DNA of 43,730 bases from a virus (lineage: Duplodnaviria > Heunggongvirae > Uroviricota > Caudoviricetes). Below are positions 32,807-37,029 of this stretch, piece by piece; position 1 is the first letter of the stretch; every line of letters begins with the position of its first letter. Under the pieces are notes generated by a model. That model saw only the letters and a list, made by a program, of their open reading frames with translations. It made no database searches and was not told the origin of the DNA. The translations under genes were made by a program, and so were the position numbers. The stretch lies in the IMG/VR virus record IMGVR_UViG_646311924_000020; one strand, 5' to 3'.

Positions 32807-33076
32807 TCATTGCTTCATCTCCCTTTCCATTTCATCAATGTCAACGTCATCAGGAAGATGGGAGCAATACGCCGCTATACCATGATGATTTATCTCATAC
32901 CCTTTGAACGTTACCATCTGGCGCGTAATCTCAACTTCGTTCAGGAATCCGCCATCGCATAACTGCCTGGCTATTTTCGATTTGGTCTGGATTATTGGTA
33001 GTGCCTGTTCTTTCAAAGCGTATGATATTTGCGCATCCCATGCCTTTTCGAGAATGGCTAATTGTTTTTTATTCAT
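32807..33076 (-). CDS. hypothetical protein (89 aa)
   Basis: Operon-strand ORF immediately downstream of helicase gene; no family recognised. Confidence 0.5.
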   Translation of the reverse strand: MNKKQLAILEKAWDAQISYALKEQALPIIQTKSKIARQLCDGGFLNEVEITRQMVTFKGYEINHHGIAAYCSHLPDDVDIDEMEREMKQ

Positions 33077-34512
33077 CAGAATCCTCCTTTCTTCTTGGAC
33101 TGCGGTTCCTCGCGTTCACGTCGGCGCATTTCAGCAGACTGTTGGTCTGTGTCATAAATAGCGCCATTTGCCTGAATGCAATACACCGTGCCGGTATTGC
33201 CATGACGATTGAGACGAAGGATTAGTTCGGTTTCACCAGGTGGAACACTGTCATCAAAAGCACCTTCACGATGGATCCCCACCCAATAATCGCAATCCTG
33301 TTCAATCTGCCCTGTATCTCGTGAGTCACTTGGTAATGGGCGTTTATTGGTTCGGCTTTCCAGTGCGCGGTTAAGTTGCGTCAGAAGCACAACAACGCAA
33401 TCAAGCTCTTTGGCAAGGTTCTTCAGTCCTTTGGTGATCATGCCGTAAGCAAGGTCGTTGCGATCGGCCTTCTCAGCGGTCATTAGTGTCAGGTAATCGA
33501 CCAGAATCATGCCAACACATCCTTTTTCTCGCTTGATTCGACGGCTTTCGCTGACGATTTGAGCCAGAGATAATCCCGGCGTGTCGTCGATGTAAAGCAT
33601 GTCGATTTCACTCAAGCGATTGGCTGTTTCGATCGCCCTGTTGAAGTCACCATCGTAATCACCCTGATAGCCGTCATCGGCGTCATTTGTCGCCGGAAGG
33701 TAAAAAATATTCGGGTTAACACCAGACTTCTGCCCTACCAGTTTTTCCAGTATCTGATCACCTGGCATTTCAAGGCTGAACATCAGAGCGGGCTTTTTCT
33801 CATGCACTGCGCAATTGATTGCCATCTGGCTGTATAGCGTCGTTTTCCCCATCTTAGGGCGAGCGCCAATGACAAACAGAGAGCCTTTCACCAGACCTTT
33901 CGGTGACAGCATCCTGTCCAGCGATGGGATCCCTGTGCTCATTCCCCGTTGTTCGCCTGATGGGTCAAATCGCTTCTCAAGGTCGCTAACCCAGTCTTCC
34001 ATGACCTCGCCAAATGAGCGAAGGCCGCGACGCGATCCGGTTTTTGCATGGTCTGTCAGTTGCGTGAAAATCGCCTGAATAGCTTCGTACTTCTGCGTCG
34101 CAGTCATTCCGTTGCGGGAATAGAGCAATTCCGTCGCTTCAGTCATGCGGTTGATGGCGTAGCGTTCCATTGCGGTTTCACGAACCTGCATTGCATAGGC
34201 AACGATGTTTGCTGCGCTTGGCGTGTTCTTTGCGATCTCAGCGATATAAGCAAAACCGCCAACAGACACCGTTAACGATTTACGCTCCAGTTCATCGAAA
34301 AGCGTCAGGCCATCTACTGGCTTTTGCTCCCGGTGCATTCTGGTTATTTCTTCGAAAAGGATTTTGTGTGGTCGGCTGTAAAATGAATCAGGCTTCAGCA
34401 TCGCCAGAACTTTCTGGACGCGCTCACTGCTGTCATCATCCAGAAGCAATCCACCAATCACCGCCTGCTCTGCCTCGATGCTATGGGGCGGCGCATAAAA
34501 ATTATCGGTCAT
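33076..34512 (-). CDS. replicative DNA helicase (DnaB family, P22 gp12-like)
   Basis: Walker A GARPKMGKTT, DnaB-type N-terminal domain (SIEAEQAVIGGLLLD) and RecA-like C-terminal domain; start placed at second ATG ([10 protein letters not shown]). Confidence 0.9.
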   Translation of the reverse strand: MTDNFYAPPHSIEAEQAVIGGLLLDDDSSERVQKVLAMLKPDSFYSRPHKILFEEITRMHREQKPVDGLTLFDELERKSLTVSVGGFAYIAEIAKNTPSAANIVAYAMQVRETAMERYAINRMTEATELLYSRNGMTATQKYEAIQAIFTQLTDHAKTGSRRGLRSFGEVMEDWVSDLEKRFDPSGEQRGMSTGIPSLDRMLSPKGLVKGSLFVIGARPKMGKTTLYSQMAINCAVHEKKPALMFSLEMPGDQILEKLVGQKSGVNPNIFYLPATNDADDGYQGDYDGDFNRAIETANRLSEIDMLYIDDTPGLSLAQIVSESRRIKREKGCVGMILVDYLTLMTAEKADRNDLAYGMITKGLKNLAKELDCVVVLLTQLNRALESRTNKRPLPSDSRDTGQIEQDCDYWVGIHREGAFDDSVPPGETELILRLNRHGNTGTVYCIQANGAIYDTDQQSAEMRRREREEPQSKKKGGF

Positions 34513-35401
34513 CGTGTTCACCCTCACGAACTTTCAGGTAGGTATTATCGTTAAGCAGGAAATCAAATCCCTTTTTGTGCCAGATAGTTCCGCGTTGATG
34601 GTTTGGACGCTCTTCGAACATCCATCGGCAATTTTCGCCTACGTAGCTCAAATAATTTCTCCAGTCCTGCATCGTGAACCCATGCCCGTCAAGCTGGCGT
34701 GTTATCACTCCGGCTTTGCGCCAGAACGTTCGGATCTGGTTTTTACGCTTGTCATTCAGTGCGCGGATTCTTGGCGCTTCAGGAAGGATTTCGTGGTAAG
34801 CATCGACAACATCCTGACAGCTGACGGAAGGTTTTTTCTTGTCAGACTTTTTGTCTGCTGTGGCACTCTCTAATACGTCAGTATTAGAGATAATATTATT
34901 ATATTCTTTATCTGTGGTAATTTGCTGGTAATCTGCTGGTACAGTATTGCTTGCATGCATTGGTATTGCTGGCTTTGAGGTGGTAATTTGCTGGTAATCT
35001 GCTGGTACAAAATTTGACTGATAATCGTCATATTTCTCTACCGAGAAAACTGAGGATTTACCGTGTGAAACCCAGTCAATCATGCCGAGTTTTTTGAACT
35101 TTCTAAGCAGGTACTGAACGCGATCTGGTTTGAGTCCTGTTTCAAACGCCAGAGAGTTTCTACCGCCAAGTAGCTTCCCTCTGCCTACCAGAATTTCTCC
35201 TGCGTCAGTCATTACATACTCAGGCGTATGCTTTGCTTTGAGGATTAAGTGAACCCACAGATGCGCTGCTTCTGCGTCCTTGTAAAACGGCACATCCATA
35301 ATTTTACGGTGCAGCAAGGCATACCCCTTACCGCTGCTTTGATGCGGTTGTTGTAGCCTTCTGGCCTCTCTGGCTTCGGCTAGATTAGATATGTTACTCA
35401 T
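34502..35401 (-). CDS. replication initiation protein (O-like, origin-binding)
   Basis: 299 aa directly upstream of and overlapping the helicase gene; contains an internal DNA iteron array and AT-rich block, as lambda O contains its own ori. Confidence 0.65.
34865..35010. repeat. candidate replication origin: iterons plus AT-rich block inside the O-like gene
   Basis: Two identical 29 bp direct repeats TGGTAATTTGCTGGTAATCTGCTGGTACA (34915-34943 and 34981-35009), each made of CTGCTGGTA-type sub-repeats, with a degenerate copy between, adjacent to AT-rich 34871-34910. Confidence 0.6.
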
Positions 35402-35572
35402 GACCTTTCTCCTTCTGCATCAGCTTCACTTTTTCCAACTCAGCCCGGAATCGACCAGGCTGCTTGAAGCTGGACAGGAAGCGATCACGTAGTATGTGTT
35501 TGTGAATTTTGTCCTGGTAAGGACTGAGTTGTTTTGTCATAATTACTCCTGTGGATTGATCCAGTAATTCCC

Positions 35573-35869
35573 TCAGAATTGCATATCAATTTGCTTAAAA
35601 TCCTCGGTGGCAGCCGGGGATTTTTTCTTTGTGATTTCATCAAGCGCATACTTAAAAGCCCTGCTAATCGGACTGATGTCTGATGCCATTCCGAAAGCAC
35701 ACAAGACCGAAGCAATAAATCTCCAGTCCGTTCTGCTTATCTTCGATTCATGACAGCCAATCATCTTTGCCAGACCGCGCTGGGTAAGCGTTGACAGGTT
35801 GATGAGTAAATCTGTTTCTGCGCGATCAACGTCGCGCTGTGATAGTTTGCTGTAACTTGTTTGTTCCAT
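35573..35869 (-). CDS. cII: CII-like transcriptional activator
   Basis: 98 aa; C-terminal [18 protein letters not shown] parallels lambda CII KKRPAATERSEQIQMEF; HTH-like segment ([15 protein letters not shown]); position downstream of cro. Confidence 0.75.
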
Positions 35870-35954
35870 TTCTTAAGATTTCCAGTAGTGAATAGTTAGT
35901 TGAAAGGTATGCGTGGAAACGCATATGGCCTTAGTTGGTCAGATATCTTGGAAC

Positions 35955-36000
35955 TCGCTTTTCAGCGACGTAGGACGAATGTCCGTTGTTACAAAGAGCG
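35955..36000 (-). promoter_or_regulatory. candidate nutR (boxA plus boxB)
   Basis: Minus strand just after cro: CGCUCUUUGUAACAACG (boxA-like), a small hairpin GGAC-AUUC-GUCC, then UCGC-UGAAAA-GCGA (GAAAA loop as in lambda boxB). Nearly the same arrangement recurs upstream of N. Confidence 0.5.
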
Positions 36001-36010
36001 GATCCGCTTA

Positions 36011-36226
36011 TTAAGCGGCTTTGTGTTCCGGCGGGAACACGTCATCAAGACTGACTTTTGCGCCTAACTTGTTTAGGCACGCAACAAGAGCACGGCATGT
36101 TTTAAGGTCTGGGAAGCGACGACCAGATTCCCAATGTCCGATAGCTCCCTGTGTGCATCCAACTGCCTTAGCAAGTGTTGTTTGAGAGATATTCAGTGAC
36201 TCTCGATATTTTCGTAGGTTGCTCAT
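36011..36226 (-). CDS. cro: Cro-like repressor (HTH_XRE)
   Basis: 71 aa from ATG 36226 (MSNLRKYRESLNISQTTLAKAVGCTQGAIGHWESGRR...), GGAGGG RBS, divergent from cI. Confidence 0.8.
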   Translation of the reverse strand: MSNLRKYRESLNISQTTLAKAVGCTQGAIGHWESGRRFPDLKTCRALVACLNKLGAKVSLDDVFPPEHKAA

Positions 36227-36252
36227 ATGCCCTCCATAGTAACCATAACGCA

Positions 36253-36281
36253 ATAATACGATATGTACTTTTAGAATGCAA
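36253..36281 (-). promoter_or_regulatory. candidate pR promoter (-35 TTGCAT, 17 bp spacer, -10 TATTAT)
   Basis: On minus strand upstream of cro; spacer and -10 overlap the 15-mer AGTACATATCGTATT, an operator-like motif also present at pL. Confidence 0.45.
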
Positions 36282-36343
36282 ACAAAAAATACATCTTGTG
36301 CATGGATGATTTTAGTACAGAGCGTAATAATAAGGGTATGAAA

Positions 36344-36997
36344 ATGAAATGGTATGAACTGGCTAGATCCAGAATGAAAGAGCTCGGCATAACTCAAGAG
36401 AAGTTAGCCGAAGAGCTTGGTATGACGCAGGGTGGAATTGGTCACTGGTTGCGCGGATCTCGTCATCCATCTCTTGACGAGATTGGTGTGGTGTTTAAAT
36501 ACCTTGGTATTGATAACGTCTCATTCAACCACGACGGTACATTTTCACCTGTTGGCGAATACTCATCTGCCCCCGTTAAAAAACAATATGAGTACCCTGT
36601 TTTTTCTCATGTTCAGGCCGGTATGTTCTCGCCTGAGCTTAGAACCTTTACCAAAGGTGATGCGGAGAGATGGGTCAGCACAACCAAAAAAGCCAGTGAT
36701 TGTGCGTTTTGGCTTGAAGTTGAAGGTAATTCCATGACCGCGCCAACAGGATCCAAGCCAAGCTTTCCTGACGGGATGTTAATTCTCGTTGACCCTGAGC
36801 AGGCTGTTGAGCCAGGTGATTTCTGCATAGCCAGACTTGGTGGTGACGAGTTTACCTTCAAGAAACTGATCAGGGATAGCGGTCAGGTGTTCCTACAACC
36901 ACTAAACCCGCAATATCCAATGATTCCATGCAATGATAGCTGTTCCGTAGTAGGGAAAGTTATCGCCAGCCAGTGGCCTGAAGAGACATTTAGTTAA
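36344..36997 (+). CDS. cI: CI-type prophage repressor (N-terminal HTH, C-terminal S24 LexA-like domain)
   Basis: HTH segment ([23 protein letters not shown]) and S24 motifs (GNSMTAP...FKKL); start chosen at ATG 36344 (7 nt after AAGGG); ORF-track start 36296 is a TTG. Confidence 0.85.
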
Positions 36998-37029
36998 CAG
37001 CCTCACCACTCTAAAACACACAACAATAA

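Follow-up and report, generated by a model that had tools for sequence, protein, structure and literature searches.

A probable replication origin within the initiator gene of a P22-like/lambdoid temperate phage

Origins placed inside the gene of their own initiator are described for several phages. [quoted passage not shown] In P22, an initiator and a phage DnaB-type helicase encoded by genes 18 and 12 replace lambda O and P (PMC3349717); growth of P22 is independent of host DnaB according to PMC3349717 and to Wickner 1984 as cited in PMC8022706. P22 gene 18, in which the ori of that phage is located, carries four repeats of ~20 bp, and the P22 proteins are ~25-29% identical to those of the phage L type (PMC8022706). 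Six imprecise 11-bp repeats (TGTCCAACGGA) in gene 18 of phage L were described as the likely origin by Zaworski et al. 2021, who set them against the four ~20-bp repeats of P22 gene 18 and against the lambda iterons (PMC8022706). The initiator/helicase pair studied here was named 'Eru3' in Stx phages by Llarena et al. 2021, who left the origin undiscussed (PMC8044961); VT2-Sakai is an Eru3 phage (PMC8044961).

The window, i.e. the whole stretch of 43,730 nucleotides that was analyzed, contains an initiator gene of this type. Over 900 nt it shares 98.4-99.8% of its nucleotides with the O genes of HK022, HK620, mEp235 and VT2-Sakai, and the same range covers the O genes of Stx1- and Stx2-converting phages and many others. 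The misc_binding features 'ori iteron 1' and 'ori iteron 2' of the VT2-Sakai record (AP000422.1) correspond base for base to 34980-35009 and 34914-34943 of the window, respectively. Both 30-mers also coincide with the two-piece rep_origin of HK620 (AF335538.1), while the records of Sf6 (NC_005344) and phage L carry a rep_origin at the homologous gene position. These GenBank features are themselves predictions, and those of VT2-Sakai and HK620 mark the 30-mers only, without the AT-rich block and the palindrome described below. No experimental test of an origin of the HK022/HK620/VT2-Sakai type was found in the searchable literature. The assignment of this locus as an origin is already known, in that public phage records label near-identical sequences in this way; what is added here, namely a geometry shared across the family and a palindrome that covaries, is modest and may be undescribed. 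Among 5,426 complete E. coli genomes, 373 contain a match to a 201-bp segment of the ori, and in 228 the match spans at least 80% of the query. The module occurs in Stx-converting O157:H7 prophages such as VT2-Sakai, where phage replication drives the dosage of the toxin genes, and through these phages it has medical relevance.

Genomic context and the initiator protein

The left part of the window holds a P22-like virion module that is closest to those of phiv205-1, CUS-3 and Sf101. On the minus strand, a candidate pR promoter is followed by cro, cII, orf48 (48 aa), the initiator gene, a helicase gene and small ORFs of the nin region. Given this virion module and gene order, the DNA was assigned to a P22-like/lambdoid temperate phage or prophage. 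The surroundings and the parts of the initiator are as follows, in window coordinates.

36296-36997, plus strand: cI, divergent
36253-36282, minus strand: candidate pR promoter (consensus scan, 9 of 12 matches)
35573-35869, minus strand: cII (Pfam Phage_CII)
34502-35401, minus strand: initiator ('O-like') gene, 299 aa
35329-35018, minus strand: N-domain of the initiator, winged helix, aa ~25-128
35011-34847, minus strand: disordered linker of the initiator, aa 131-185, with the whole candidate ori inside
34834-34505, minus strand: C-domain of the initiator, helical, aa 190-299
33076-34527, minus strand: phage DnaB-family replicative helicase gene (Pfam DnaB and DnaB_C; TIGR03600)

The homologous Stx1 and VT2-Sakai records place their 'putative major rightward promoter' at the position of the candidate pR. 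A transcript starting there would cross cro-cII-orf48-O, and hence the ori, and might be tied to its activation. Downstream of the initiator, the place of the lambda P gene is taken by the DnaB-family helicase gene, whose product scores 582 bits against TIGR03600 phage_DnaB (cut-off 499). This gene overlaps the 3' end of the initiator gene, with the annotated VT2-Sakai start corresponding to 34512. In the ORF list, no helicase loader gene was apparent downstream of the initiator.

The initiator was modeled with AlphaFold2 on 38 diverse homologues. Residues ~25-128 and 190-299 have pLDDT above 90 and the linker (aa 131-185) has pLDDT of ~45; at a pTM of 0.44, the relative orientation of the two domains in this model is meaningless. 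The repeats occupy gene nt 393-488, that is aa 131-163 within the low-confidence linker, and the iterons, the AT block and the palindrome all fall within the linker coding region. According to the model, the candidate origin is located where the protein appears to tolerate almost any sequence. Natural initiators of 321 and 343 aa have three and four copies of the 22-aa/66-bp unit, respectively; both were drawn from a homologue list dominated by >97% identical E. coli alleles.

By family assignment, the initiator belongs to PHROG 345, 'replication initiation O-like', and touches the 'DnaD-like helicase loader' PHROGs. Relatives of its N-domain include 'replisome organizer / DnaD-like helicase loader' proteins of Gram-positive phages at 26-34% identity. 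Altogether, 6,022 relatives were found among 1.84 billion representatives, and many of them match the N-domain alone or the C-domain alone, which confirms modular shuffling. A Pfam search gave no Phage_rep_O (PF04492) match at E <= 0.01 and DUF7376 only below its cut-off; there was no NCBIfam match, and a sequence search of the PDB returned no match at E <= 1. BLASTP against lambda O found nothing significant (E > 4), and hhalign aligned aa 24-114 with aa 26-105 of lambda O, i.e. the winged-helix region, at a probability of 27% (E 6.5e-4). By these searches, the protein is not detectably a member of the lambda O family.

Iterons, AT-rich block and palindrome in the window and its relatives

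The candidate origin comprises the following elements, given in the direction of transcription.

34980-35009, minus strand: iteron cluster 1, exact 30-nt repeat with period 11; gene strand TGTACCAGCAGATTACCAGCAAATTACCAC
35008-34998, 34997-34987 and 34986-34976, minus strand: 11-bp units of cluster 1, core TACCAGCA or TACCAC
34944-34979, minus strand: 36-bp spacer, which holds the clusters 66 bp (6 x 11) apart
34914-34943, minus strand: iteron cluster 2, exact 30-nt repeat identical to cluster 1
34942-34932, 34931-34921 and 34920-34910, minus strand: units of cluster 2
34882-34911, no strand assigned: AT-rich block, candidate DNA unwinding element, GC 0.17-0.20, weakest duplex
34867-34890, no strand assigned: perfect palindrome TCTCTAATAC-(GTCA)-GTATTAGAGA, 10-bp arms and 4-nt loop, partly overlapping the AT block

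A repeat search of the window found the exact 30-nt direct repeat GTGGTAATTTGCTGGTAATCTGCTGGTACA at 34914-34943 and 34980-35009, with 66 bp from start to start and 94% identity over 35 nt when extended. No third copy was found in the window at up to three mismatches, and the repeat had no match in 100 dinucleotide-preserving shuffles. Tandem Repeats Finder assigned a period of 11 with consensus ATCTGCTGGTA within the repeats. The 11-mer TACCAGCARAT has four exact matches in the 43.7 kb, every one inside the 30-mers, with no exact copy elsewhere in the window. Counting 7-mers that recur at +11 gave 11 in the window, where ~3 are expected in total, and 6 of these are at the iterons. On the gene strand the 30-mer reads TG-TACCAGCAGAT-TACCAGCAAAT-TACCAC, corresponding to three tandem 11-bp units; the last unit of cluster 2 is shortened to TACCAC and enters the AT block.

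As 11 bp is no whole number of codons, the units of one 30-mer use three reading frames (TA-CCA-GCA-GAT, TAC-CAG-CAA-AT and T-ACC-AC). The encoded peptide therefore has no internal repeat: it is the DNA, and not the protein, that has the sub-repeat. At an offset of 66 bp the two triplets stay in helical phase (6 x 11) and in frame (22 codons), and the duplicated peptide simply follows from the DNA repeat and does not count as a separate feature. With regard to dyad symmetry or secondary structure in the array, there is no inverted repeat within 34914-35009, and the iteron region shows no folding beyond that of shuffled sequences (z = +0.4 to +0.7). Neither a DnaA box (TTATNCACA) nor the IHF consensus (WATCAANNNNTTR) was found at up to one mismatch in 34700-35200.

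The GC content across 34880-34919 is 0.20. Within this stretch, the 30 bp at 34882-34911 form a weaker duplex than any other 30 bp of the 43.7-kb window, with a nearest-neighbour dG of -26.4 kcal/mol against a mean of -40.2 kcal/mol (sd 3.0) for 30-bp duplexes from 33000-37000. In the direction of transcription, the repeats are thus followed by the least stable duplex and then by the palindrome. The palindrome at 34867-34890 had not been mentioned in the original prediction. It is unique in the window, at 0.05 palindromes of this kind expected per window, and as single-stranded DNA it gives a hairpin of -7.5 kcal/mol (z about -6) on either strand.

The original prediction had described two identical 29-bp direct repeats lying 66 bp apart and built from sub-repeats, an adjoining AT-rich stretch of 40 bp and a duplicated peptide. 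The identity and the spacing of the repeats hold, and only their length changes, to 30 nt by the repeat search. The sub-repeats are borne out by the 11-bp period and by the restriction of the unit to this array, the AT-rich stretch by its GC content, and the duplication by a 10-residue peptide that occurs twice in the 299-aa ORF at 34502-35401 on the minus strand.

Both 30-mers are kept in 66 distinct close-relative sequences. Among 67 distinct close relatives, 5 of 60 sites are variable in the iterons, 7 of 36 in the spacer and 97 of 900 in the gene; by this site count the iterons are not significantly less polymorphic than the whole gene. Within-type polymorphism was dropped as a test of constraint for too few differences, with the spacer as the most variable part. 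In L091, whose initiator is 80% identical to the window protein at the amino acid level, and in L174, the units and the 66-bp spacing are kept, while the spacer retains its length with a sequence unrelated to that of the window. One viral contig has three clusters, spaced 66 and 66 bp. Spacings of 55 and 77 bp obtained in the viral-contig scan were rejected: point mutations had shifted the matching unit, and the true cluster spacing is 66 bp.

For a broader comparison, seven phage sequences and 40 chromosomal prophages (other Enterobacterales, one genome per species) were collected, of which 46 were analyzable. Three plus three units with an 11-bp period, 66-bp phasing and a matching gene position were observed in 44 of these 46 homologues. 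About nine unit sequences are represented, with cores including TACCAGCA, TACCAACA, TGCCAACA, TGTCCAAC, TGTCCAGC, ATCCAA and TCCCAGA. CCA is common to all of the cores, and where the array meets the AT block the last unit is always degenerate and reads ..CCAC or ..CCAT. The unit type tracks the third helix and wing of the N-domain (aa ~92-121): RVQYLLRKF pairs with the core TACCAGCA, RVKSLLRKF..TTKSNN with TGTCCAGC, NKVKSLLRSF/TF with TGTCCAAC, and RVKYLLNKF with TGCCAACA. Such apparent co-variation between unit and N-domain is what a recognition code predicts, yet it is confounded by shared ancestry.

Sf6, HK75, mEp234, mEpX2, HK542, IME10 and others match the window at ~97% in a segment limited to 34502-34911, and the mosaic breakpoint, 34911/34912, falls exactly between the iterons and the AT block. 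The exchangeable units are the iterons with the N-domain on one side, and the AT block, palindrome, C-domain and helicase on the other. Module exchange of this sort is the classical lambdoid pattern. We tentatively suggest that the family has a fixed geometry, in which six helical turns separate two triplets of 11-bp sites, and that changes in a handful of bases and of winged-helix residues reprogram its specificity.

An AT minimum (GC 0.13-0.25) was present at the matching gene position in all 41 full-length Enterobacterales homologues. In the same 41 homologues, which were not preselected for it, a perfect inverted repeat of 9-10 bp directly follows the AT minimum, with a 4-nt loop of the form T[A/G]A[A/C]. 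There are at least 14 distinct left arms, for instance TCTCTAATAC, TCTCTTCTAC, ACTCAATATC, ACTTACTACC, CAATACTATC, ACTCATTAGG and TAACTACATC. In a stem alignment of 20 distinct sequences, which admitted those with at least seven perfect pairs and is to that extent biased toward pairing, 97.5% of cells are paired, 10 of 10 pairs changed on both sides (62 cells), and the covariation score is 0.84, where shuffles give 0.20 and slid controls no more than 0.21. None of the pairs shows one-sided (G-U type) changes, and the sole two U-G cells are in the outermost pair. The unselected count of 41 out of 41 mostly removes the concern about selection bias. Since the peptides encoded across the palindrome vary among homologues, its symmetry is not explained by protein constraint.

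Compensation of the Watson-Crick type only argues for selection on duplex symmetry over an RNA helix, and this symmetry may represent hairpins on both strands, a cruciform or a symmetric binding site. A tie between stem type and the lineage of the C-domain and helicase was considered and rejected, as a single stem type accompanies C-domains that are 55-86% identical and helicases that are 44-71% identical, some of the helicase values being underestimated owing to truncated flanks. The lack of close tracking between stem and lineage argues against a co-evolving, sequence-specific reader of the palindrome. The palindrome might contribute to the origin as a hairpin or cruciform. It is conceivable, though doubtful enough to be offered with reserve, that the palindrome, fused to the AT block, is an uncharacterised DNA structural part of this origin family, which would fold when the block opens and aid the loading of the phage DnaB-type helicase or keep the bubble open.

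Interpretation of the locus and rival explanations

By analogy with described systems, 34867-35009 is very probably the theta-replication origin of a P22-like/lambdoid temperate phage with the HK022/HK620/VT2-Sakai ('Eru3') module. A likely replication origin had been proposed in the original prediction, and it is supported by the order of repeats, AT block and palindrome, by the co-variation, and by the public ori annotation. The mechanism outlined here is drawn by analogy with lambda O/ori-lambda and SPP1 G38P/oriL; because the initiator has no significant similarity to lambda O, the analogy rests on architecture. The winged-helix N-domain would bind the six 11-bp units (core TACCAGCA) as two triplets, and since the triplet starts are 66 bp apart, all sites would lie on one side of the helix. 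The resulting nucleoprotein complex would distort the DNA and open the AT-rich block at 34882-34911. Upon strand separation the palindrome might form hairpins or a cruciform that stabilise or mark the open state. The C-domain may then recruit the phage DnaB-type helicase encoded directly downstream, without a loader of the lambda P or DnaC type, as suggested by gene adjacency, by co-inheritance and by analogy with P22 gp18/gp12 and SPP1 G38P/G40P. After helicase recruitment, host primase and the replisome would take over. Transcription from pR across the ori may assist, as in lambda, whose origin is transcribed from pR.

Three other explanations of the locus were weighed against this one. A mere tandem duplication of a 22-codon stretch of disordered linker, with no DNA function, would be in frame (66 bp = 22 codons) and would duplicate a peptide, as is the case here; moreover, the region is at pLDDT about 45, and the copy numbers of 2, 3 and 4 in natural alleles fit a slippage-prone linker. 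However, a sub-period of 11 bp is out of step with the codons and places the units in three frames, the layout of 3+3 units at 11 and 66 bp recurs with about nine unrelated units and unrelated peptides, the units persist beside a diverged spacer, and an AT minimum and a covarying palindrome always follow the array. We regard this explanation as extremely improbable. It is also improbable, although to a lesser degree, that the units are initiator sites for autoregulation, copy control/handcuffing or a roadblock to pR, with replication starting elsewhere. Plasmid iterons do have dual roles of this kind, in autoregulation, copy control and handcuffing, and the array is part of the initiator gene, which is transcribed and precedes the helicase gene. 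On the other hand, the array borders directly on the weakest duplex in the window, no further exact 11-mer unit exists in the window, and the arrangement matches two proven origins, ori-lambda and SPP1 oriL (PMC6316719).

The remaining explanation concerns the palindrome and the T/A-rich tract (34867-34911, plus strand), which could be an RNA element, namely an antisense intrinsic terminator or a hairpin in the pR mRNA. A terminator-like element on the plus strand is listed by the consensus scan, an automatic 'terminator' feature is present at the matching place in the phage L record, and covariation by itself suits RNA as well as DNA. We nevertheless consider an RNA element unlikely, and the antisense terminator is the less likely reading of the palindrome, given that the stem has only three G-C pairs and its tail, TAATATTATT, has no T run. 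In addition, the 20 distinct sequences contain no one-sided pair change of the G-U type, which is expected of a duplex palindrome that acts on both strands and unusual for an RNA helix, the consensus scan detected no antisense promoter between 34400 and 34867, and the element never occurs apart from the AT minimum beside the iterons. For a replication origin at 34867-35009, which remains the preferred reading, the comparative anatomy pinpoints the bases to mutate, i.e. the six phased 11-bp units, the DUE and the covarying palindrome, while the natural variants of unit and N-domain are ready material for specificity swaps.

Comparison with known systems

With respect to VT2-Sakai, HK620 and HK022, nothing of substance differs from the origin in the window. 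Phage L and Sf6 have a homologous initiator (~65% aa identity overall) with 3+3 units of 11 bp and 66-bp phasing at the same gene position, and their AT block, palindrome, C-domain and helicase are nearly identical to those of the window. In contrast, their unit is TGTCCAAC where the window has TACCAGCA, and the N-domain has diverged (46-57% aa identity). These differences imply a different origin specificity, and the ori of the window and that of phage L/Sf6 are sister types in specificity.

The likeness to ori-lambda includes the location of the origin in the middle of the gene for a 299-aa initiator, the order of repeats, AT-rich block and inverted repeat, and the association of the repeats with the N-domain and of the remainder with the C-domain. 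However, lambda has four dyad-symmetric iterons of ~18-19 bp bound by O dimers, whereas the window has six 11-bp direct units without dyad symmetry. The inverted repeat of lambda has 7-bp arms and a 14-nt loop, as compared to 10-bp arms and a 4-nt loop here, and lambda O recruits host DnaB via lambda P, whereas the partner gene in the window encodes a phage DnaB-type helicase. Accordingly, the lambda ori architecture named in the original prediction applies to the intragenic repeats, AT block and inverted repeat but not to ~19-bp dyad-symmetric iterons. Its designation of the gene as 'O-like' is appropriate for position and architecture but does not extend to detectable membership of the lambda O family, in view of the Phage_rep_O and BLASTP results.

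Iteron plasmids with a winged-helix Rep (pPS10, R6K and RK2) share phased direct repeats beside an AT-rich DUE; their origins contain DnaA boxes or IHF sites, in contrast to 34700-35200 of the window, where none were found. P22 resembles the window in its pair of genes for an initiator and a phage DnaB-type helicase; its proteins are distant from the phage L type and therefore from the window type as well. SPP1 requires the loader G39P and has a second origin, oriR, whereas no loader gene is evident in the window. Nonetheless, SPP1 oriL offers a close parallel, as both systems combine repeats and an AT-rich block in the initiator's own gene with a phage helicase of the DnaB family.

Palindrome next to the AT block

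One further element lies at the presumed origin, directly after the AT block, and occupies the same place in the homologous loci L288-L339:

34867-34890, perfect palindrome with 10-bp arms and a 4-nt loop

A counterpart of this palindrome is kept in all 41 of the 41 Enterobacterales homologues. Its stems fall into at least 14 kinds among the homologues, with differences consisting of Watson-Crick-compensated changes only, and the loop follows the pattern T[AG]A[AC]. Public origin annotations leave this element out. The palindrome may act as a DNA hairpin or cruciform, or as an antisense terminator.

Variation of the iteron array among homologues

In Vibrio phage 1.157.O (L292), a distant homologue, the linker contains three 11-bp-spaced units, CAAACGAA (gene nt 353-385), followed by an AT-rich 9-bp sequence repeated four times in tandem, AATAAGGAG (gene nt 403-438), that replaces the palindrome. 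Therefore, the 11-bp triplet design reaches past Enterobacterales, whereas the palindrome does not. A clear array of two clusters of three 11-bp units was not detected in only two of the 46 analysed homologues, the Silvania and Leclercia prophages L317 and L318, where the arrangement of sites may be more degenerate or different; the AT block and palindrome are both present in these prophages.

Initiator alleles with three or four copies of the 66-bp (22-aa) unit, in place of two, occur naturally, and the number of iteron clusters thus differs in the wild. The longer alleles include P0001 (343 aa) and P0002 and P0016 (321 aa each), and an extra-copy locus was located on viral contig L092 (3931-4127).

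Elements in the remainder of the window

6022-6089 (+), sar RNA (RF00262; P22 immI antisense RNA), 95.6 bits
16118-16234 (-), ALIL pseudoknot (RF01497), 121.5 bits
18774-18890 (+), ALIL pseudoknot (RF01497), 121.5 bits
27875-28030 (-), neighbouring tRNA-Thr(TGT) and tRNA-Asn(GTT) genes

The sar RNA match indicates a P22-type ant/immI region. The two ALIL matches have equal scores and inverted orientation, with ~2.5 kb between them, which points to a pair of IS3-family insertion sequences, or else to a composite element, within the phage genome.

Surroundings of the initiator gene

34502-34527, overlap of the initiator and helicase genes
35394-35540 (-), orf48 (48 aa), between cII and the initiator gene
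35597-35624 (+), strong terminator-like hairpin of 12 pairs, then TTCTTTG

The overlap, which equals 26 nt if the GTG start is used and shrinks to 11 nt if counted from the ATG start that the VT2-Sakai annotation gives, suggests translational coupling. The orf48 product matches PHROG 1913, labelled 'tail protein', and many RefSeq phage records name it likewise; for this early-region gene, the label is almost certainly a propagated misannotation. The hairpin lies opposite the 3' end of cII, on the antisense strand, and sits at the position that in lambda is occupied by the oop RNA terminator; it therefore probably belongs to an oop-type antisense RNA.
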